A stretch of 62,273 bases of DNA, counting the filler, from Globobulimina sp. (taxonomy: Eukaryota): NCBI GenBank assembly GCA_003354225.1. It is 25 parts of 25 records of this genome, joined end to end, with 100 filler letters (N's around TTAATTAATTAA, not from the genome) between each part and the next. Parts side by side here need not be neighbours in the genome. Positions count along the whole stretch, not along the records: positions 42,425 to 44,818 come from PIVH01006938.1; positions 44,919 to 47,312 come from PIVH01006939.1; 23 more parts are not named here. One strand, written 5' to 3'. Made by a program: the position numbers and the translations under genes. Shown piece after piece: positions 2,498 through 45,039 of the stretch. The stretch's first letter is position 1. Every line of letters begins with the position of its first letter. Under the pieces are notes generated by a model. That model worked only from the letters and a program-made list of their open reading frames with translations, was not told the DNA's origin and made no database searches.

Positions 2498-3774
2498 ATT
2501 AATTTGTGCTTCATTCAATAACTCATCCAACAATAATTTTAATTCATTAACATCGTCATATATATTATCCGAATCATCAAAACTTTCATCAGTTTGATTG
2601 CGAGTAACCCGCATAATTAACTTGGGCAATGTTGACCAAATTTGTGCCTTTGAATGCGGAATGGAACATAACGCAATTAACGTATCAATAAATTGCGTGA
2701 TTTGTTGCTGATTGACCGCTTTCATAAACAGATAATTGATTAATTCCTTTGGATCATCCAAATCAATGCCATTCCACAACATTTGATTATGATCTTCTTG
2801 CTCCATCTCACCATACATACGTAATTGTTGATCAATACCTTGCAACAAAGGATCGTTTAATTCGCGGCAGTCACTCTCAAACATTCGTGTACGTGAAATA
2901 TCCTTCGCGTCCATCACTGATTGCAAATATTTGCGCATATTCATTGATTCAAATTCAGGTTTCACATTTCCTGAAAGTAAATCATTTTTTGTCACACTGG
3001 GACAATATCCCATAATTGATTCAAAATATTTTGAAAGCCTAATTCAGTTAAATACCTTCTGGCGTCCACTCTTGTTCGTAACTCTGGGGAGAGATTTAAA
3101 ACGACATTAATAAATTTTAACGCATCGCGTCGAAAATATAAATCATTTTCGGAGAACATTTTACTGACAAATTCGTCAAAAATAGAGGATGCATTGTGTC
3201 GATCACCATAACTATACAAGGCAACGATTACTATTTCGAATGAGTTCTGATTGAATAAACATATGGTGGTTAATAATTGCAATACATTGCTCATTATTTG
3301 TTTGTCAGACGATTCAAACATGTCTGTTATGCATTGTATTGTGTGAGAATGCGATAAAACCAAATCAAAGCCTATATTCTCGAAATTCAAAATTGTATCG
3401 AATATTAATAATAAGCTTTCTAAGATTTCAGATCGATTAAAATGTATTGCTGCCAATGCACATAAATTTGTTAAACCGTCATTGTCTACAAAATCAATCA
3501 GAAATGTATCGGGAGACAGATATATTATTTCATTGATTTTTTGTAAATGCTGACATGAGATAATTGTTGAATTATCAAATATATATTGAGATATTCCTGT
3601 TGCATTGTTAGAGTCTGATAATGATCGCAATTTTCTCAATTCTTTTAATAATTCAATTTCAGACGATATTTCCATGGCGTCTACACCTATAACGCTACAA
3701 GATCGATGGCGTGCAATTACTCCAACGTCGGTAGATAATCTATGTCGAGTTGATGTGAAAAGTTGATCGTCCAT
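2498..3774 (-). CDS. Diaphanous-type formin, N-terminal GBD/FH3 region (3' truncated; apparent frameshift near 3000)
   Basis: FLIDFVDNDGLTNL, VLQLLTTICL, ALKFINVVLN...ELRTRVDARRYLTELGF, IDLDDPKELINYL and LIALCSIP match armadillo GBD/FH3 motifs. ORFs 2992-3774 and 2450-3013 overlap out of frame with no convincing intron. Confidence 0.7.
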
Positions 3775-22365: not shown

Positions 22366-22520
22366 NNNNNNNNNNNNNNNNNNNNNNNNNNNNNNNNNNN
22401 NNNNNNNNNTTAATTAATTAANNNNNNNNNNNNNNNNNNNNNNNNNNNNNNNNNNNNNNNNNNNNGTTTGATCATACAAGCAATATGGACTGTCATAAAA
22501 ATTAACCCAAAAAACTATTA

Positions 22521-22608
22521 TTGACAGTACCTCAAAATTAGAGTAGTGCTAATTTATAGAATACCTATTTAATAATGAATTCAATTCATTTCCTTAACAA
22601 AGGAGGAG
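22521..22608 (+). promoter_or_regulatory. Bacterial promoter/operator/RBS region
   Basis: TTGACA at 22521 (the -10 box is weak), palindrome AATGAAT-tca-ATTCATT at 22574-22590, and AGGAGG at 22601 ahead of ATG 22611. Confidence 0.55.
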
Positions 22609-22610
22609 AT

Positions 22611-23453
22611 ATGTACTCAGACCTGGAGGGCAAAACTGCTGTCATCACAGGAGCAGGTAAAAAGACGGGAATTGGTTATGCCATTGCAGAAATCCTTGCC
22701 AAGAGTGGTGTAAACATTGTTATAGCAGACCTAGGTGGGGAACAAACCACCGTTGCCGGCCAGGTAAAAATGGCTGATTCCAATGAAATGGACATGATCT
22801 GCAATGACCTCACCAAAAAATACCAGGTTCAATGCCTGGCTGTTTGTGTTGATGTAACCGATGGCTCTTCAATTAGTCAAATGACAGAGCGCATTAGTGA
22901 AAAATTTTCTAACATCGAAATCCTATGTAATAATGCAGGTGCCTCCTTTGGTGTTCCATGCGGATTTGAACATTATAATGAGGAATCCTGGATGAAAACC
23001 ATTGATGTAAATCTTCATGGTGTTTTCAGAATTTCAAGGGCGTTGCTCCCTTTTATGAAAAATAAGCCAGGGGCCAGCATTATTAATACGGCTTCCAGAG
23101 CTGGCAAAGTACCTGCATTATTCAATGGTGCATACTCAGTTGCAAAAGCCGGAGTCATTATGCTCACCAAGGTCATGGCCAAAGAACTTGCCGGATCAAA
23201 TATCCGTGTTAATGCCATCTGTCCCGGCCAGGTCATGACAGATATCGAAAAATGGCGTTTTGAATTGGAAGCCAAAGTTTTCGAGTCCAGTGTGGATGAA
23301 CGGATAAGTGAAATGTGTACTACAATTCCAATGAATCGTATCGGCACCCCGGATGAAGTCGGTAACCTTGTTTCATATCTTGCATCGGATGCATCATCAT
23401 ATATCACGGGTCAGGCCATTAATGTATGTGGCGGCCAATTGATGGAGTTATAA
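22611..23453 (+). CDS. Bacterial short-chain dehydrogenase/reductase (FabG-like SDR)
   Basis: TGAGKKTGIG, NNAG, S...YSVAK catalytic motif, IRVNAICPG, YITGQAINVCGG; Shine-Dalgarno present; no introns. Confidence 0.92.
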   Translation: MYSDLEGKTAVITGAGKKTGIGYAIAEILAKSGVNIVIADLGGEQTTVAGQVKMADSNEMDMICNDLTKKYQVQCLAVCVDVTDGSSISQMTERISEKFSNIEILCNNAGASFGVPCGFEHYNEESWMKTIDVNLHGVFRISRALLPFMKNKPGASIINTASRAGKVPALFNGAYSVAKAGVIMLTKVMAKELAGSNIRVNAICPGQVMTDIEKWRFELEAKVFESSVDERISEMCTTIPMNRIGTPDEVGNLVSYLASDASSYITGQAINVCGGQLMEL

Positions 23454-23477
23454 TTTTAAGCTAACTGGAGAACAATC

Positions 23478-24860
23478 ATGAGTGAAATTACAGGCGGACA
23501 GCTTGCGGCTGAAGCCATTGAACAACAGGATGTCAATTATATATTCACACTTAGCGGCGGCCATATCACGCCCATTTATCAATATATTGTCAACACCAGT
23601 GTCAAGCTGTTTGATACCCGCCATGAACAATCCGCTCTATTCATGGCAGAAGCATGGGGTAAACTGACTCGAAAACCCGGTGTTGCAATGGTCACAGCAG
23701 GCCCTGGTTTTACAAATGCACTCACCGGTATTGCCAGTGCGGCATTCTCCAATACGCCCTTAGTTTTTATTGCTGGATGCGTGGGCCATAATGCCCAGGA
23801 AAAACTGGATCTTCAGGACATGCGTCAGGCACCCACCATTGAACCTATGGTTAAAAAAGTCCTTATTTGCAATAAAACCGAACGGATTCCCGAATACGTT
23901 GACATGGCTTTCAGAATAGCCACGTCCGGTCGCCCGGGTCCAGTCTATCTGGAAATTCCTGTGGATCTTCTTAACGGAACTGTCGATTCAGACACTGTTA
24001 AAATCTTCAACTCCTCTGTGACAGCCCGGCCCGTTGATCTGGCAGGAGCTGCTCAATTCATGACCCTGCTTGAAGCTGCTGATAAACCAATCCTCGTTGC
24101 AGGCGCTGGCGCCTGGAATTCCAATGCAGGAGATGAACTTAAATCTTTTATTGAAGATACTGGAACACCCATCTTCACATCATTGGCTGGCCGGGGGATC
24201 GTTCCCGATACTCACCCACTCTGTTTTGAATCATCCCTTGCCATTCGGCCGGGAGCATCATTTTCCGCCCTGATTGAATCGGATCTGGTCATTTTTCTTG
24301 GCACACGTATGAGTCTCTATTATATGTTTGGTGATATTATCAACCCAAATGCAAAACTCGTTCATGTTGACATGAATGCAGAAGAGATCGGTCGAAACAG
24401 ATCCATAGATCTGGGTGTTGTCAGCGACATAAAAGCATTTATTGCCGAATGTAATCGTATCCTGGAAAGCAGGAACAATGGTGATATGCTTACATCGAAA
24501 TTTAATGAATGGATTACTCATTTAAAAGAGGAAGAGACCAAAAGTAAAGAGTTTGCCGAATTGACCTGGAAAAGTGATAATACGCCAATTCATCCCATGC
24601 GGCTTGCAAGGGAAGTGGATGAATTTATGAACCGAGAGGATGATATCGTTGTGGCCGATGGCGGTGACACAACAACCTGGATGGGAATGACCAGAACGAT
24701 GAAAAAACCTGGACATTATCTGGACTACGGACTATATGGTTCTTTAGGTGTAGGGCTTCCCTATGCCAATGCAGCCAAACTCCTTTATCCTGAAAAACGA
24801 GTCCTTTTAATATCCGGAGATGGGTCCATGGGCTTTAATTTTATGGAATTTGAAACCGCC
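23478..24860 (+). CDS. Bacterial thiamine-diphosphate enzyme (acetolactate synthase-like / 2-hydroxyacyl-CoA lyase-like), 3' truncated
   Basis: FTLSGGHI, TRHEQSA, VTAGPGFTN, GRPGPVYLEIP, GSLGVGLP, GDGS. It lies 24 bp after the SDR stop, with a GGAG RBS (operon). Confidence 0.9.
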
Positions 24861-29950: not shown

Positions 29951-31500
29951 CTACATTTTGAGTTATATCGTCGTATAATTCGTCAATGAGATCCTCAAAG
30001 GTTGCTTCTTCATATTCTACATTGAAGGAAAAAAAGTGTTGTTAATTATATATGAATGTAAATGGGAAAATACCTTCTTGTGTTACTTCGTCATACAATT
30101 CATTGATATCATCATAATCTGCATCTATTTCATCGTCATAATAATCACCATATTGTTCATCGTCTTCGTCATACAAATCATCATAATCCTCGCCATATTC
30201 TATATATTTAATATCAAATATATTAAATTAATCCATAAAAACTATATAAATATATACCTCCATCATAAAAATCATACGTTTCATCCTCATCCAAATCATA
30301 ATATTCATCCTCATCATCAAAATCCTCATAATACTCACCGTATTCTCCATATCCATCATCAACTTCAGCTCCGTCATCATAATATTCATCATCATCATAG
30401 ATATCATAATATTCACCATATTGTTCATTATTTGCTTCATCCTCATCCTCATAATCATAATCATCATAATTATGCACCATTCTTCTTCTTTGATTCAAGC
30501 CAGATATTCTCAGCATTTCTCTATTCCGATCATACCGCGCCATGGAACCTTTCTCCCTGGCTCGAATCCGTCGAAATGCATTGGTCAAACCATATAATCC
30601 GCCGCCATTAAACGAGGGTTGCTTCAAAAGCCCGTTATTTGCATTCATTGCATTCAGACCATTCCCATTCATTCGTTTTCGAACTATATTTTGTAATTTT
30701 TGTTGAGCCATATTCCGCCATCCATTTACATCTAAATATTGAAAATCAGTGCTTTCAAATTCAATAAAAATATCAAACAATATATACCTTCATCGTCATA
30801 ATAATCCTCATCGTCATAAAAGTCATCATTATAATCATCGTCATAATAATCCTCATCATAATAATCATCATCATCATCAGCATAATAACCCTCATCATCA
30901 TAATATCCATCATCATCACTGTCATAATAATATTCATCATCATTTCTCCGCATTTCCTTCATCCTCCGCCTCATCCCATGCGTTGCCAGGTATTTCTCCC
31001 TCAATTTATTGTGTTTTCTTGACCGAAACAACCGACCCAACACATTTCCTTTCCCTCTCACTGCTTTCTTAAAACTTTCCAATTTATATCCACCGGATCC
31101 ATAATGCATTGCGCCACCCCGCGACCCCAACGCATTATAAATGTCACCTCCTTTCCCCACACTTCGCCGCAACACTTTCGGTAATATCTTATTCGCATTG
31201 CTCAACACATCTAATTATATAATATTATACACACAATTTAATACAAAACAAAATAACAAAACTTGGCAACAAATGTATAGCCGCACCCACTATGGGCTGC
31301 ACAAAGGGCAGTTCCTCATCAATGTCATCATAATCCTCCATAGCATCCATACTGTCCACCATCGCTCCGTCATAATCATAGTAATCAAACTCGTCAAACC
31401 TCGCCGCCGCGCTCTGCTTCAAATTGCTCTTTTTCTTCGTTGCAGCTTTCTGTCTGAGCCCGTTTGGCCGCTTTAAATGTCCCAGCAACTCTCTCCAAAT
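29951..31500 (-). CDS. Modular protein alternating basic segments with Asp/Glu/Tyr-rich blocks (multi-exon; start unresolved, 3' truncated)
   Basis: Exons 31210-30788, 30731-30258, 30199-30074 and 30016-edge join in frame through phase-1 GT-AG introns. Confidence 0.65.
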
Positions 31501-32093
31501 CCACCTGGGACACCATCGGGGCCGCTCATTGGGCCGCAATTGCTGATATTTCTTGTACTTTGCATCCTGCGAACAAACAAGATCCAATAACAAACATTCC
31601 CAATCCCATGGCGTCAATGGCAGTTCCCTGCAAAGTGAAATTTTCAAACAACGCTAATAATGATCCATTGCTTTGATTTGTAGATGAAGTCACAACTTCT
31701 GTTGGCACTGCACAAAAATATATAAAATATTCTGGCCGTTTGATTATATTATTCCTCAACAATGGCCTAATTTTTACAATTGAATTTAGTAATTGTGAGC
31801 GTGCCATGATGCGTTGCTGAAAAACAATGGCAAAATTTTTCAAGATATATAAAAACGAAGATATCCGAGCTGACCATTTTTTTTTTTGAAACACAATATT
31901 TTTTCGATAGAATAAATGAATGGTAATTGAATTAATAATGCAATAATAACAAACAAAAAAAAGTGACATAACAATTGGTTTAAAAATATATTATCAAAAA
32001 CAAAAAAAACACACACAATCAAACCAATACATTTTGATAAATTAATTCATATTTGAATAATTATACAGATTCAATCAAACATTTCAATTATTT

Positions 32094-32345
32094 TCAATAC
32101 CAACAGTCATACGAACCATAACCACATCCATAGCCACCACCGCGACCATATCCGTGCTTATATCCACCACCTCCACGGCCTCGACCATAACCACCACCGC
32201 GCCTATAACCTCCACCGCGGCCATGTTTATATCCTTTACCATACCCACCGCCTCGACCATAACCACCGCCTCGACCGTACCCACCGCCTCTACCATATCC
32301 ACCACCATGCCCATAACCTCCGCCACCCATTCCACCACCACCCAG
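32094..32345 (-). CDS. Gly/Tyr/Arg-rich (GGGYGR repeat) protein C-terminus
   Basis: (GGGYGR)n ending in YGCGYGSYDCWY*. Confidence 0.65.
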   Translation of the reverse strand: MGGGGMGGGGYGHGGGYGRGGGYGRGGGYGRGGGYGKGYKHGRGGGYRRGGGYGRGRGGGGYKHGYGRGGGYGCGYGSYDCWY

Positions 32346-35890: not shown

Positions 35891-37105
35891 AACGACCAGA
35901 GAGATGTTCCACATCGTACAGAATGTTGGAGCAGTATGGAATATTAAAAGAATTAATCCAAATCATCCCCAGAGAGGCGACAAAACAAGAATTAATGGCA
36001 ACGCATTCCAGGCATCATGTTGAAATTGTGTTGGGTAACGATGGTAAAAAAGGCTGGTATGACGGAGATACGTTTTACAATCAATTTTCATGTCGGTCTG
36101 CAAAATTGGCAGCCGGAGCCACTATCGAGTTGATGAGGGGTATACTGCAAAATAAATACGACAATGGCTTTGCTTTGGTTCGTCCGCCAGGCCATCATTG
36201 TGAGCACAATAAAGGTTAATTTTTCTTAAATATATGTTGTTTTATGATCTGCATAGTTAAATTAATTTATTTTTTCTACAGCAATGGGTTTCTGCTTATT
36301 CAACAATGCTGTGATTGCAGTGAATTGTATCCGCAATGAAATGTTATGTAAGAAAGTTTTGATTGTTGACTGGGATGTTCATCATGGAAATGGAACGCAA
36401 AATATGTTTTATGATGATGAGCATGTCCTATATTTCAGTGTACATCGACATGACAATGGATTCTTTTATCCATCCACTGGCAAAGCACACGAAACAGGAA
36501 ATGGATTCAATATTAATGTGCCATTGAATGTAACCACTGATATAGGACATGGAGATAAGGAATATTTACTGATTTGGAAAGATGTCTTATTGCCTATTTG
36601 TAGGGAGTTCAAACCGGATATTATATTAATATCAGCTGGCTTTGATGCGTGTATTGGTGATCCATTGGGTGGTATGAGAATAACCCCGCCGTGCTATGGA
36701 TTATTGACCAGATTGTTATTGAATGAATGTAAAAAAGTTGCAATTGTGTTGGAGGGAGGTTATAATTTAGATACAATGCCAAGAGCTATATGTTGTTGTA
36801 ATTATGCTTTATTGAAAGGACCGAAACAACAAAAAGACAGTTATGCTGTCGATGAGTTTTATGCTGAGTTTACAGAGAGTATAACTGATGGAGGGAATGA
36901 GTGTGAATATGAAACATTTAATAAATGGTTTGAGGATTATGGCGATGAATTGAAACGTAAACTCGGCAATGATATTTGGGCAGATATTGATTCTGATGAA
37001 GATTTCTCAAATTATGGTTCATGCAAAGAGACTGTGAAAGAGGTATTGTCAGAACAACAGAATTACTGGAAATGTGTTGGGGAAATTTTGCAGAAATATA
37101 TATAA
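35891..37105 (+). CDS. Class II (HDAC6/10-like) histone deacetylase, 5' exon unresolved
   Basis: ERPER, RPPGHH, MGFCLFNN, DWDVHHGNGTQ, SVHR, SAGFDA..GDPLG and LEGGY. Confidence 0.93.
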
Positions 37106-39930: not shown

Positions 39931-42324
39931 ATCCAACCATTCATGCATCACTACATACAACTTGGTCATATTATATGGTCACATATCATTTCAAGGTTTA
40001 ATAAGTGAATTCACTTTTATTTATTTACGAGCAAACGGGAGGAAATAAATGAATTTAAAATTATTTGGATTATGTTATTTATGTTGGAATACAACAAAAA
40101 TTGAACAATAATACCATATTAATACCCCAAATCCCGTAAGGCTCGCAATTTAATTTTAAAGTTATTCGTGGCAGAAAAGGATAAATTTGAAAGAAGAAAT
40201 GTAGAGAATGCAGAGAATGGAATGAATGGAAAATAAATTGTGAAAAGAAAGAAAGGGAAGGAGAAAAATTTGTAAATTGGAATAGAGAAATTACATTTGG
40301 CGAGAATTTATAAAGTTGAATTTTGACATTTCTGTCTTATAAGATAGAACTTGAAAAAACGGAGGGACAGAACAGAGTGTTTCTGTGTTTTGTGTGTTTG
40401 AAGTAAGAAAAGGAAACAACGTTTTTAGTGACACTTTCATCAACAAAGTCATGGAAAGATGAAGGCAAAGCTACTTGTTGGAGTCATATTTGAAATTAGA
40501 AGCCCATGGATCAAAGACCTCGTTTGTGATATGGAAGGAGGTTAATTGCGGAGGATTGCGGCGTTCACTGGAGCCGTGAAGGAGTTCAAATATAAAGATA
40601 CGAAAGTCATCTTCGCGGTAACGCATATATCGCATACATACATGTGGCAAATGAGAAGGTTTCCAGCCGACGAATTTGAGCAATTTTGGCTGTGGAATAA
40701 GCTGCATATTGGAGAGGGTGGCACCACCAATGCGGAATGAATATGCAGTAAGGCGCTTTATTTCACATTTTGGACATTTGGATACAATGGCGATCTTCTT
40801 GGCAATTTTTGATAAATGAGCAGTGGTACAATTGGAGCCATTGGAATATCGAAAGACAAATTCATTCGGTGATATGGAGAATTTGTGGGATTTATTGGCA
40901 TGTAAAGCATGGGAACGTTTTAGGAAAACGGATAACAAAAGATATGGATTGACATAGTGGCATGGACAAATAATGTGAGTGTTAGGAATATAGCGATTGG
41001 AGCAGGAGGAGTTGCCAACATATATCTTCTTATAAATGCGTTTGGAGCGCTGATTTTTGAAGGAGACGATGGATAAAATGAAATAGTAATCCTTCCGATG
41101 GGAACTATCCTTAATTAATTTGATGTGTTTATATCGGAGACCAGTTCGTTGATAAGATCTGGCGCCCGGCAGTAGTTCACCGGGTCTTGGCATGGTACAA
41201 AGATACAATTGGGCCAAGAGGACATGTAATAAGTTATTAAAATTCATTGTGGATAGGTGATGGCTATACGCTTTGTAATGGATGGTATATGAAATTATTT
41301 GTTTTAATTGGAAAGGTAATCGAGAGTCAGATTCCTCTTGATATTGTTTACGGAGATCATGTAGGAAACGGGAATAATCGGAATTTTGTTGAAAATCCTT
41401 TTTAAAACCCTTCAATTCGCAAATCCAAGACAGGGTGGATTGCCACGTACAAAGGGACTTAATATTGCCAGCTTGGAGGGTACGTTCCGAGATCCAGTAC
41501 ATCGCGACCAGTGGATCGAGGGGCATAAGGAATGGATCCTCATCCATCAATATGCAATATTTGGCGAAATGTCGGAGACTGGAGACGTAATGTTCTTTGG
41601 TTGATAATTCTTTATTGTAGAGAATGACATGATTGATATGTTTCGCGTTTCTTTTGTCTTTTAATGCCATGCGATTGTCGCGCAATCGTACCGACATATA
41701 ATCTGAATATGTATAAAAATTGTATACATTTAGAAACACTTTGTATATAAAGTGCGCACAGACAATTCCCAGATTTAACAAAATTAAGTGGAGAGTTAAA
41801 ATTCAGGAGAAGGGCAAACTGATTTTACTTGTCCCAAATTATGCAAACAAAAAGGGAATATGGACAGTGCGAAGTTGTAAGTTGAGGGCGTTCCTTTCTT
41901 GTAAAATTTGTGAAGTTTAAGGAAAGTTTCAGTCAACGAGAACTGTAATAGATAATACAGCATAAGACAATAAATTGGAGAAACGAAAGGAAACTTCAAA
42001 AACGAAAATGTGAGTCTCAAAGTTTTTCAGTCACAAAGTCAGAAAATGTAAGGTTTGGAGGGGAGAGAGAGGGAAGCAATGGCTGAGTGGAAGGTTAATA
42101 GTGCATATAAAAAGGGTAAGGCGAAGACTCGCGGACATCTTTTGGTTTCTGTAACCATTTGACAAATTTGCGGTATTCGACCATGTCGCGCTGATGGAAT
42201 TTTGTACGGGATTCCATAAATATGAAATTCGAGAAATAAGAAGGTGTTAATTCAGATAAATGGAGATTATATAATGCGGCCAATCGATGAAATGGATCCA
42301 TATGAAAACGCGAGAGCAAATCAG
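39931..42324 (-). mobile_element. 3' part of a tyrosine-recombinase retrotransposon (RNase H end followed by YR)
   Basis: The contig edge reads (A)DLLSRF, the terminal ADxLSR motif of retroelement RNase H, upstream of and co-oriented with the YR. Confidence 0.7.
40471..41697 (-). CDS. Tyrosine recombinase of DIRS/Ngaro type
   Basis: Catalytic series R (MPRPGEL), K (SFKNQ), [H>Y]xxR (AYSFRIGGAT), W (VGWK), Y (RYMR). An N-terminal SAM-like region is present (YVSSLRHFAKYC). Confidence 0.88.
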   Translation of the reverse strand: MSVRLRDNRMALKDKRNAKHINHVILYNKELSTKEHYVSSLRHFAKYCILMDEDPFLMPLDPLVAMYWISERTLQAGNIKSLCTWQSTLSWICELKGFKKDFQQNSDYSRFLHDLRKQYQEESDSRLPFQLKQIISYTIHYKAYSHHLSTMNFNNLLHVLLAQLYLCTMPRPGELLPGARSYQRTGLRYKHIKLIKDSSHRKDYYFILSIVSFKNQRSKRIYKKIYVGNSSCSNRYIPNTHIICPCHYVNPYLLLSVFLKRSHALHANKSHKFSISPNEFVFRYSNGSNCTTAHLSKIAKKIAIVSKCPKCEIKRLTAYSFRIGGATLSNMQLIPQPKLLKFVGWKPSHLPHVCMRYMRYREDDFRIFIFELLHGSSERRNPPQLTSFHITNEVFDPWASNFKYDSNK

Positions 42325-42424: not shown

Positions 42425-42831
42425 AAATCAGCCCCAAGACCAACACCCCGTGGCTATGGAGGGAGATTCGAGCGACAACGATATGGGAGGTGCGAATGAG
42501 ATATCGGAATGGAAGCCAAATTACACCGTCGGTGAAGTTACGTATCTGGGAACCCGCGGAATTGGAATGAGATGGTTTGCCAATGAGAATATGACATCCC
42601 TCACATTTGCTCGTTTCATTACCATCAATCCCGACAAAACGATCAAACAGCCAAATACTCCTTCGGTATGTATTTTGTACTGTAAATGTATAGGAATATA
42701 ACCTTATTATGTTTCATGTGTCACTCAATTTGAACGAGTTGAAGGAAATGTTGGAACTGATGGATTCCAAGTTGGCCGAGCTGAAAACTGTCAAAAAGGA
42801 GGAAAAACAGAGATTGAAAAATCTAAAATGA
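42425..42831 (+). CDS. Small two-exon protein, weak PC4/ssDNA-binding-like pattern
   Basis: Donor gtatgt at 42666. The downstream frame VSLNLNELKEMLELMDSKL resembles the PC4 GISL..EQW..L helix. The acceptor is ambiguous (tttcat at 42717 or gag at 42738). Confidence 0.3.
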
Positions 42832-42952
42832 TATTCTATGCTCTATCAATAATAGTATGTTATGTATTAAGCGCTATCGTTTATCGATCAGATATAAGAA
42901 TCGAATAAAACTTTGTACTCTTATTTGTGTCAAATTTTACTCGTCGAGCGGT

Positions 42953-43550
42953 ATGGCCGATCGGAGGCGGATCAGTGGCACGGTCCGAACCGTCGCTAGC
43001 GCAGATGGCAAGGAAAAATTCACATTTTTCTATGGCGCCAAAACCATGTTAGGAAATTTCTATCCATCTACATTCGTTGTCGACGGAAGTATCTTCAAAA
43101 ATACCGAACAGTATTTCCACTATAAGAAAGCAGGTAAATAATAATTTGTGTTGTTATAGCTGTTATTAATTCGATCGTTTTATAGAATATTTTGGTGCGA
43201 GTAGGATAAAAAACTTAATAAAACAACTGGATGATCCCTATGTCCACAAAAGATTGGGGCGCAGTGTCAAAAACTTCGATAGTGTTGGTTGGAATCGCGT
43301 TTCAAAATATTACATGAAAAGAGGAAATTTCGCAAAATTCGATCAAAACGCGGAACTTCGTCTCGCTCTCCTATCAACCCGTGGGACAACGCTCGTAGAA
43401 GCGAGCCCTTTCGATCGCTTGTGGGGCAACGGATTGAGTATGTACGACAAAAGATCGTTGGATCGCAAGGAATGGCTCGGTGAGAACAGAATGGGACAAA
43501 TTTTGATGGAAGTTCGAGAGGAAATAGCTGATAAATATGCAAAGAAATAA
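42953..43550 (+). CDS. NADAR (YbiA-family) hydrolase, 181 aa, one 52-nt intron (43134-43185)
   Basis: FFYG...LGNFYPSTF..DG..F...EQYF...KA|.YF, KRLGRSVKNFD...W, AKFDQN..LR..LLST....LVEASPFDRLWG.G and GENRMGQILMEVRE. Confidence 0.93.
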
Positions 43551-43592
43551 TAATTATTTATTTATCAATTGTATAATAAACATTTACTATCA

Positions 43593-43997
43593 CTACTTCT
43601 CTCCACGAATTCTCTTCGCTAAAATCATATCTTTTGTCATAATGGTTTGTCTTCCGGCATGAATGGCGCAAATATTCACGTCCTCGTATAATCCGGTCAA
43701 ATACGATTCCGCCGCCTCTTGAATAGCAGCGATAGCGGCGCTTTGAAATCGTAAATTTGGATCCATTTCTTGAGCTATCTCATGAACCACTCGCTGAAAC
43801 GATTTTTTGGGGATCAGAGTTTCGGTAGTTTTTTGATAATGTCTGATCTGCAAAATTGCTCGCACACCCGACTTCGTTTTTCTTCGATTTCCAGATTCGG
43901 GCTTTGGCGCCACTCTTCTTGGTTCCTTTCTGGCCAACTGCTTTCTAGGTTCCTTGCGCGCCATGTTTTGTCGAATTATTTGCTTCGTTCTAGCCAT
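43593..43997 (-). CDS. Divergent histone H3 variant (134 aa), intronless
   Basis: MARTKQ N-terminus; histone fold [26 protein letters not shown]...[42 protein letters not shown]. Confidence 0.95.
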
Positions 43998-44036
43998 TGT
44001 CAGCTGGTAGATTATTGTGTAAAGCCTCGCCGAACG

Positions 44037-44308
44037 ATGGCCTCCGAACAAAGCAACCTGACGACGGATAACAAAACTAATGAAAATATAGAGAAAATGG
44101 ACGTCGATGTTAAAATCGTTGACAACGATACCGACGGTCTCGCCCCTTGCACATTTTGCTTCAAACGAGCATTGGAATTGTATAGAAAGTAAGTTGTATA
44201 CTGCACTACTATTATTCATACCCTATACATTATACTTGCAGCAGCGAACCGAATCCTTGGCATTATTTGAAAAAGGACTGTGATTGTGAATTATCGGTGC
44301 ACGACTGA
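44037..44308 (+). CDS. Small two-exon Cys/His protein (72 aa), intron 44189-44241
   Basis: A gtaagt...ttgcag intron joins ...CTFC...LYRN-SEPNPWH..KDCDC..; AATAAA follows at about 44350. Confidence 0.55.
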
Positions 44309-44369
44309 TTTGTATGTATACACCTTTCTAACAAATTTTATTATTTAATAATAAATCACATAAAACATT

Positions 44370-44642
44370 TTAATCATACGTCTTTGTAATTAGTTGGGAG
44401 CGGAAACCACAGCAATCGGGCAAATCTATGTTGCACAACAAATGTCCACTCTTGTGAAACCAAACCGCGTAAGCCTGAATCGCGTCGCTGACATCCGTAT
44501 GCCACTGCTGTACATCTGGACCACTGCGGGATATACCGTGAGCGGCGAAACCACAATAGCGAATCAGATCGATTGTGAAATGTCGTTTGCAAGTGGCATT
44601 TTGACGAGTTAGTTTCGGGATGGGTAGTTCTCCTTCGGCCAT
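44370..44642 (-). CDS. Small hypothetical protein, convergent with 44037-44308
   Basis: 90-aa ORF from ATG 44642; its AT-rich terminator gap carries AATAAA on both strands. Confidence 0.45.
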   Translation of the reverse strand: MAEGELPIPKLTRQNATCKRHFTIDLIRYCGFAAHGISRSGPDVQQWHTDVSDAIQAYAVWFHKSGHLLCNIDLPDCCGFRSQLITKTYD

Positions 44643-45039
44643 ATTTGACAGTTGTTGCGCGAACAATGTTGGGGAGCGGCGGCGGTGATGTTGGTCTCGG
44701 TGACGTCAGAACCGGTCATGATGAATCATCAAACCCGTTCGTTGGCACGGGGGTCGAACGAGCTTTGACGAATAGAAAACTGAAAAAACGTCTTCAAACA
44801 CCGTCTTTATCGGCCTTANNNNNNNNNNNNNNNNNNNNNNNNNNNNNNNNNNNNNNNNNNNNTTAATTAATTAANNNNNNNNNNNNNNNNNNNNNNNNNN
44901 NNNNNNNNNNNNNNNNNNTTAGATCACAAAAAAAAGCTTAGCTCAATATCATCATTATTGATGGAGATAAAAATAAATCATTGTTATTACCAAAAAGTAA
45001 CATTTTCGTGAACATGATATTGGGATATTCAACTCAATG

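Follow-up and report, generated by a model that had tools for sequence, protein, structure and literature searches.

A conserved block of small, mostly spliced genes with a divergent histone H3 and a YbiA-type NADAR in a Globobulimina assembly, possibly a fragment of a nucleus-dwelling virus or virus-derived element

Mirusviruses are nuclear and intron-rich, and histones are described as one of their core functions (PMC12768974). Preprints report a histone H3 gene on a mirusvirus episome of a thraustochytrid as well as H3 genes in skiaviruses, and one nuclear-replicating giant virus with chromatin proteins, Clandestinovirus, is described with both H3 and NADAR in a single genome (PMC8383183). 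Stand-alone NADARs occur in many eukaryotes, and YbiA-type members of this superfamily strip ADP-ribose from guanine in vitro, their natural substrates being stated to be unknown (PMC11125620). The locus described here is a compact gene cassette in which an H3 gene and a NADAR gene stand next to each other. It forms one contig (PIVH01006938.1) of the Globobulimina sp. assembly GCA_003354225.1 and lies at 42425-44818 of the 62,273-base stretch of DNA that was analyzed, referred to below as the window. The window consists of 25 contigs of 2,393-2,397 bp each, ordered by decreasing size with N44-TTAATTAATTAA-N44 linkers between them, and the adjacency of neighboring contigs is without biological meaning.

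The cassette comprises five complete small genes and the 5' end of a sixth, and about 79% of it is coding. Its counterpart is L001, a 4,353-bp contig from a JGI metagenome (GC 34%). An H3 match and a NADAR match had both come from a JGI contig of that length, which a metagenome scan with 125 pattern matches and two confirmed loci then retrieved. The features of the cassette are as follows.

42425-44818, no strand: single whole assembly contig, 2,394 bp, GC 41.5%, with N/TTAATTAATTAA linkers at both ends
42456-42831, plus strand: g1, orphan gene; exon 1 42456-42665, intron 42666-42738 (73 nt, GTATGT...CGAG), exon 2 42739-42831 (TGA)
42953-43550, plus strand: NADAR gene, YbiA-type; exon 1 42953-43133, intron 43134-43185 (52 nt), exon 2 43186-43550 (TAA)
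43551-43592, no strand: convergent spacer between NADAR and H3, 42 bp; AATAAA on the plus strand at 43575-43580 and on the minus strand at 43562-43557
43593-43997, minus strand: divergent histone H3, 134 aa (protein P0001), intronless; PF00125
43998-44036, no strand: divergent spacer between the H3 and Cys ATGs, 39 bp, a putative bidirectional promoter; the L001 counterpart is about 50 bp
44037-44308, plus strand: Cys protein, 72 aa; exon 1 44037-44188, intron 44189-44241 (53 nt), exon 2 44242-44308; one CxxC...CxC module
44370-44642, minus strand: g5, orphan gene, 90 aa; invariant Cys30, His35, Cys77 and Cys78
44666-44818, plus strand: g6, 5' part, running off the contig; 23 bp separate its ATG from that of g5

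The start of g1 is uncertain, as the frame is open up to the first base of the contig, and the end of the Cys gene is given as read from the sequence (44308; the computed coordinate is 44307). Spacers measure, in gene order, 121, 42, 39, 61 and 23 bp. In all five complete genes a sense AATAAA follows the stop, at a distance of 25-73 nt, and three of the five contain GT-AG introns. Because opposite-strand AATAAA signals lie within the 42-bp spacer, the 3' ends of the NADAR and H3 transcripts would overlap or be very short. An initial annotation of this contig had described five small genes in 2.4 kb, with the divergent ATGs of H3 (43997) and the Cys protein (44037) 39 bp apart and the convergent stops of NADAR (43550) and H3 (43593) 42 bp apart, AATAAA being present on both strands. 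These distances and signals were reproduced and the five genes are complete, to which the start of the sixth at 44666 has to be added. The uniform intron length of 52-53 nt given there holds for NADAR (52) and Cys (53) and fails for g1, whose intron has 73 nt.

The cassette is part of a conserved six-gene block under purifying selection. L001 is collinear with the entire cassette contig, carrying g1, NADAR, H3, Cys, g5 and g6 in equal orientations, with a protein identity of 67-77%. Synonymous differences are saturated (pS 0.74-0.86), while pN is only 0.15-0.21 in all six correctly framed segments; the set consists of these six segments, g1 exon 2 having been left out. For g1, pN is 0.19 against a pS of 0.79, and the L001 ortholog is 68% identical across exon 1, with an intron of 78 nt at the same codon. 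Introns also occupy the same codons in Cys and, in the case of NADAR, at the first intron. The g5 proteins are 67% identical, the 23-bp spacer between g5 and g6 is conserved as well, and the beginning of g6 aligns, at 40%, with the beginning of a 161-aa L001 protein that contains a hydrophobic stretch. By this comparison, g1, Cys, g5 and g6 are real genes, conserved under purifying selection and with no known fold or function.

L001 extends the cassette by about 1.4 kb to the left and about 0.6 kb to the right, with the following content.

L001, left flank: end of one gene; a gene of about 200 aa, interrupted by a 49-nt intron and ending in a Pro/Cys-rich tail; three 24-nt direct repeats
L001, right side: the full 161-aa g6, followed by the end of another gene

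All seven complete genes of L001 encode about 200 aa or less. None of six flank and exon proteins of L001 matched Pfam, and neither a housekeeping gene nor a viral hallmark gene was found in the flanks by Pfam or by reading of the frames. H3 and NADAR are the only family matches in the cassette and L001 together.

The block also recurs in other environmental DNA. A 5,617-bp ENA contig encodes proteins of at least three cassette families, namely H3 (P0306), NADAR (P0121) and g5 (P0184), the last of which is identical to the L001 g5 over the aligned part. A marine metagenome from another study (run X2) contains NADAR and H3 pieces 95-99% identical to the cassette. Runs X3 and X4, which derive from the same sample, give no real cover of the cassette, which is no proof of absence. 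Among the sequencing runs that contain cassette sequence, no RNA run is listed. The joint occurrence on L001 and on the ENA contig shows that the H3-NADAR linkage is conserved. The initial annotation had allowed for two outcomes that would speak against its reading, namely a linkage found nowhere else and a contig running into housekeeping synteny. The linkage does occur elsewhere, and the L001 flanks hold small orphans and no housekeeping gene.

The preferred reading of this block is that the cassette comes from a nucleus-dwelling virus or from an element derived from one, to which a probability of roughly 0.45 can be assigned. This reading draws on a row of genes none of which encodes more than about 200 aa and most of which have no relatives in named organisms, and on the combination of a fast H3, an outlying composition and recurrence in unrelated marine data sets. 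It also draws on the precedent in print of mirusviruses, skiaviruses and Clandestinovirus. The cassette would then be a piece of a gene-dense, nucleus-expressed genome other than the ordinary chromosome of the assembled protist, and it would most likely belong to an uncultured marine protist's large DNA virus that replicates in the nucleus, or to an element that is integrated or of viral descent in such a host. Host RNA polymerase II would transcribe the genes from tiny bidirectional spacers, and the transcripts would be spliced by the host spliceosome and polyadenylated, those of convergent pairs overlapping. The H3 would pair with H4 and join nucleosomes on the DNA of the element or of the host. 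The NADAR would be an active N-glycosidase of the YbiA family, removing ADP-ribose from guanine or clearing intermediates of the riboflavin pathway.

Composition sets the cassette apart from the rest of the window. Its GC content of 41.5% compares with 29.2-38.6% in 23 eukaryote-like contigs and 43.5% in one bacterial-like contig, which makes it the most GC-rich of the 24 eukaryote-like contigs and bears out the earlier remark that it is more GC-rich than most. Only the bacterial-like contig exceeds it in tri- and tetranucleotide distance (rank 2 of 26), and its observed/expected CpG ratio of 1.39 is the highest value (0.96 +/- 0.17 for comparison). Searches of the contig against the other 24 with blastn and tblastx revealed no similarity and no second copy, and an Rfam search of the window gave no match.

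The H3 gene is an ordinary member of its family, and so is the NADAR gene, whichever origin applies; the earlier identification of both is upheld (PF00125 at 6.5e-28; PF08719 at 1.5e-32). The H3 match scores 97.9 bits over residues 12-131, and in alignment A1 the tail follows the canonical-like H3 rows column for column with one 1-residue gap. Two kinds of H3 were considered and rejected. A canonical or replacement H3 (H3.1/H3.3-like) does not fit, given an identity of 58% to the canonical-like P0008 and a pN of 0.18 between the cassette and L001 orthologs; P0005 and P0006 are 82-85% identical to P0008. Centromeric H3 (cenH3/CENP-A) is characterized by an unalignable N-terminal tail and a longer loop 1. 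The cassette protein has an alignable tail, and no insertion lies between helices 1 and 2 (loop 1) in A1.

Compared with the canonical-like rows of A1, the cassette H3 retains lysines 4, 14, 18, 23 and 56 and has other residues at positions 9, 27, 36 and 79. Anti-silencing through loss of K9 and K27 was rejected as a conserved feature, as the L001 ortholog retains Ala-Arg-Lys at 7-9. A database search kept 116 of 125 candidates at E <= 1e-3, and the close relatives among them are environmental only (85%, 85% and 66-69%), all others reaching at most 59%. With its pN of 0.18, H3 evolves as fast as the orphan genes.

The NADAR gene belongs to its superfamily by a clear margin, with exon 2 matching profile positions 52-162 of PF08719 at 113.5 bits (cut-off 35.1) and exon 1 covering positions 1-49. 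Since the two exons together restore a continuous domain, the splice is confirmed. Exon 2 alone also places the protein in the YbiA family of riboflavin-intermediate N-glycosidase type (TIGR02464, 103.1 bits against a cut-off of 73.7), and the protein aligns to E. coli YbiA (2B3W) and to the NADAR of Phytophthora nicotianae (8BAU). In 8BAU, ADP-ribose is contacted by E43, K50, R79, E125, D130 and W133 (PMC11543638). The YbiA family is marked by the Glu of the last strand (E125), which is replaced by Asp in DarT1-linked and by His in phage enzymes (PMC11543638, PMC11125620). All contact residues are retained in the cassette protein, as Glu52 and Lys59 in exon 1 and as Arg25, Glu71, Asp76 and Trp79 in exon-2 numbering, and the counterpart of Glu71 in the corresponding strand of both 2B3W and 8BAU is likewise a Glu. 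A two-residue offset probably separates the numbering of PMC11543638 from that of the PDB chain.

The cassette NADAR thus has the domain above curated cut-offs and the aligned contact residues of the YbiA family, but differs from 2B3W, 8BAU and TIGR02464 in being a spliced, eukaryote-style gene with a clade motif of its own. This motif, seen in the NADAR alignment (A2), is Leu-Trp-Gly-Asn-Gly, compared with Ile-Trp-Gly-Ile-Gly in 8BAU and in four of the five more distant A2 relatives. A database search retained 55 of 62 candidates and brought up two 72-aa fragments with 76% identity. An antitoxin of the DarT1-NADAR type (DarTG1) was considered and rejected: Pfam and PADLOC found no DarT or other ADP-ribosyltransferase among the neighbors g1, H3, Cys and g5 (g6 was not scanned), and the enzyme has the YbiA-type Glu instead of the BC4488-type Asp. 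DarT1-NADAR and the orphan counter-defence NADARs of phages share the superfamily with the cassette gene, and YbiA-type enzymes also act on guanine ADP-ribose in vitro (PMC11125620). The cassette gene differs from them in this Glu, in having no transferase found beside it and in its eukaryotic setting. NADARs of retrotransposons (Ectocarpus Gypsy Pol, oyster Tx1 ORF1) resemble it as YbiA-type domains on eukaryotic mobile elements (PMC12477816); there the domain is fused to Pol or ORF1, whereas the cassette NADAR is stand-alone with no reverse transcriptase nearby.

The remaining proteins g1, Cys and g5 have no match in Pfam, PHROG, PADLOC or NCBIfam, and the ESM Atlas gave no usable match for g5 or g1. 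The AF2 model of g1 is poor (pLDDT 62), and that of g5 is fair (pLDDT 81.6), its fold having no match at E <= 0.001 in PDB or BFVD. Among 1.84 billion representatives, the g5 family accounts for seven clusters, with proteins of 80-103 aa. All are environmental, and their contigs span 476-5,617 bp. Every member of the family has the same Cys, the same His and the same Cys-Cys pair, and no match to g5 was found in GTDB genome contigs. Four weak profile matches of g5 to large proteins were rejected, as they fall within Cys-rich or repeat regions of unrelated proteins. In L001 the Cys gene (3098-3435) consists of two tandem CxxC...CxC modules in one gene, and the intron with its splice sites is duplicated too (46 and 53 nt), each intron lying at the equivalent place of its module.

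Comparison with the described viruses reveals both likeness and difference. Mirusviricota and skiaviruses share with the cassette a single H3 gene amid orphans, spliceosomal GT-AG introns, a marine setting and genes of nuclear type (PMC12768974; preprints). Unlike them, the cassette is linked to no virion or informational hallmark gene within 6.7 kb, the total span of cassette and L001 that was searched, and its intron density exceeds the reported genome-wide averages of mirusviruses. Introns of the cassette and L001 measure 46-78 nt, compared with a reported peak near 80 in mirusviruses, and inspection by eye found none of the reported branch-point consensus motifs in them; the word 'NADAR' is absent from the main text of that report (PMC12768974). 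Clandestinovirus, which is likened here by description, has only seven intron-bearing genes in 582 kb, and the account drawn on does not report adjacency of its H3 and NADAR (PMC8383183). The combination of spliceosomal introns and an H3 gene, a mirusvirus-type criterion, is present in the cassette, yet it is normal in cellular genomes and therefore does not discriminate.

Several results weigh against a viral or virus-derived origin. No capsid, terminase, portal, PolB, packaging ATPase or integrase was found in the 2.4 kb of the cassette or the 4.35 kb of L001; for the cassette contig, the initial annotation had already noted the lack of capsid, polymerase and integrase, and searches of family libraries agree. 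Nor did the proteins encoded in these 6.7 kb include a virion module with HK97-type capsid, terminase, portal and triplex, or nucleocytovirus core genes. Scans of IMG/VR with H3, NADAR, g5, g1, the left gene of L001 and the L001 g6 confirmed no relative. Three introns in 2.4 kb of cassette and six in 4.35 kb of L001 amount to about 1.25-1.4 per kb, with more than half of the complete genes spliced. In mirusviruses, the highest genome-wide average reported is 0.65 per kb, and no more than 36% of the genes contain introns (PMC12768974). Intron positions held in common, together with a second NADAR intron that is present in L001 and missing from the cassette, correspond to the style of nuclear genes. 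In other respects the cassette is like the rest of the window: its GC3 (0.46) falls inside the range of the other contigs (0.22-0.48), the introns of the latter are likewise short (about 35-70 nt), and at least one spacer of about 46 bp on other contigs means that compactness is not unique to the cassette contig. In the source run, 43704-43770 is covered by two alternative 67-nt pieces, distinguished by positions 43734 and 43740. Against flanks at 9.5 and 9.0 these pieces reach depths of 4.8 and 4.4, a ratio of alleles or copies of about 1:1, as a heterozygous diploid locus gives.

The viral H3 genes in IMG/VR point in the same direction. The 67 loci are at most 55-56% identical to the cassette H3 at full length (61% for partial sequences), which is no closer than cellular H3, and none of them has NADAR or another cassette gene within +/-10 kb. 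Of 55 such proteins, 50 are closer to canonical H3 than the cassette H3 is (58%). The H3 tree groups the cassette H3s with environmental proteins and not with those of IMG/VR, although it is poorly resolved, with 85 of 138 inner branches open. In this tree, 22 of 117 database matches outside 110-160 aa and 12 of 67 IMG/VR matches that were shorter than 115 aa or contained a stop were left out, and P0004 was replaced by the full L001 H3.

The initial annotation had proposed the accessory region of a nuclear virus or Maverick-like element, and this proposal holds only in part. Print precedent and the conserved linkage speak for it; the lack of a hallmark gene in 6.7 kb and of an IMG/VR relative, the high intron density and the 1:1 bubble speak against it. 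Its further suggestion of H3 and NADAR as two paired counter-defences is speculative and has only the adjacency of the two genes behind it: the NADAR is of YbiA type rather than DarT1-linked, and the L001 ortholog of the H3 does not share the loss of lysine 9. A more elaborate version is unlikely. It posits that marine protists host a so far undescribed lineage of DNA viruses, or of episomes, that replicates in the nucleus and is more intron-dense than any reported virus. In this lineage, H3 and the YbiA-type NADAR would form a convergent, transcript-overlapping module that shields chromatin. The fast H3, which in this copy is without the silencing lysines, would resist heterochromatin marks, and NADAR would erase ADP-ribose that the host places on DNA or RNA.

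The alternative that best survives is an ordinary chromosomal locus of the assembled or a co-sampled marine protist, namely a lineage-specific island of small genes with an H3 variant and a stand-alone NADAR, of which L001 would be the ortholog in a related species. This explanation is possible and has a considerable chance of being correct. Everything about the gene structure is eukaryotic: the introns are of GT-AG type and keep their positions, with a single gain or loss, and AATAAA signals are present. The intron sizes, tight spacing and GC3 resemble those of the other contigs. The allele bubble with both branches at half the flanking depth fits, as do the missing viral hallmark gene and IMG/VR relative and the occurrence of stand-alone NADARs in many eukaryotes (PMC11125620). 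In addition, a fragment of an HDAC6 gene on another contig is 69% identical to a JGI metagenome protein, a divergence like that between the cassette and L001. What this explanation handles poorly is the succession of seven complete genes that all stay at or below about 200 aa, of which five lack a homolog in any named organism; this would be very unusual for a cellular locus. Furthermore, no named eukaryote, including the EukProt set of Bolivina argentea, gives a close relative of the H3 variant, the NADAR clade or g5. The outlying composition of the contig and an H3 that evolves at the rate of orphans also count against a chromosomal locus.

Far less probable is that the cassette is cargo of a large DNA transposon in protist chromosomes, whether a Maverick/Polinton-like element or one of another kind. 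Small, dense and partly orphan genes with expression signals of nuclear type would suit such cargo, the two alleles or copies of equal depth would fit an integrated element, and retrotransposon capture of NADAR domains is described in a brown alga and in oyster (PMC12477816). Nevertheless, Polinton/Maverick families (pPolB, a retroviral-type integrase, two jelly-roll capsid proteins, packaging ATPase) and terminal inverted repeats were all missing from the two short records, cassette and L001, and no second copy exists among the other 24 contigs. Intron-rich cargo is not a known feature of Mavericks, which also counts against this alternative.

That the sample contained another eukaryotic genome, strongly reduced like that of a nucleomorph-like or parasite nucleus, is very improbable. 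Tiny spacers, short introns and divergent histones are typical of reduced genomes, and the cassette agrees with this in its divergent H3, its many orphans, its overlapping 3' ends and its spacers of 23-121 bp, but it is more GC-rich and not more AT-rich than the rest, its intron density is high, and 6.7 kb contain no housekeeping gene although such genes dominate reduced genomes.

The choice between a viral or virus-derived element and a chromosomal locus determines what the block means. If viral, it would represent a new lineage of intron-rich nuclear viruses of protists that is missing from IMG/VR. It would also be the first case in which a virus-style H3 and a NADAR hydrolase are physically linked in a conserved manner, and would thus offer a concrete pair for the study of conflict over chromatin and ADP-ribose in eukaryotes. 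If chromosomal, it would be no more than a modest curiosity: an island peculiar to its lineage, with an H3 variant that evolves rapidly.

Two further observations concern L001. Three 24-nt direct repeats lie upstream of the g1 ortholog (L001 1273-1404), each with TGACTCA, which we take to be a bZIP site of AP-1/Gcn4 type; the corresponding region is cut off in the cassette contig. The observed/expected CpG ratio, 1.39 on the cassette, is 0.60 on the collinear L001, and the two contigs seem to live under different CpG regimes.

Elsewhere in the window, 22 of the 24 other contigs contain an open frame of at least 228 aa. On the only contig above the cassette in GC (22466-24860, GC 43.5%), a short-chain dehydrogenase gene without introns is separated by no more than a few bases from the thiamine-pyrophosphate enzyme gene behind it. 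The pair is operon-like and looks bacterial, which suggests that the assembly contains non-host DNA. At 29951-32345, long low-complexity open frames run on both strands (His-rich and Asp/Tyr-rich), and this contig ranks third of 26 in k-mer distance. A 408-aa open frame on the minus strand at 40471-41697 has no Pfam match, and its C-terminal part may resemble tyrosine recombinases of the Crypton/DIRS type. The HDAC6-type deacetylase fragment, at 36284-37102 on the plus strand, is a single protein that hints weakly at a rhizarian-like source for the assembly: its closest relative is the JGI metagenome protein at 69%, and among named organisms the foraminifer Bolivina argentea comes nearest, with two EukProt proteins at 65-67%.

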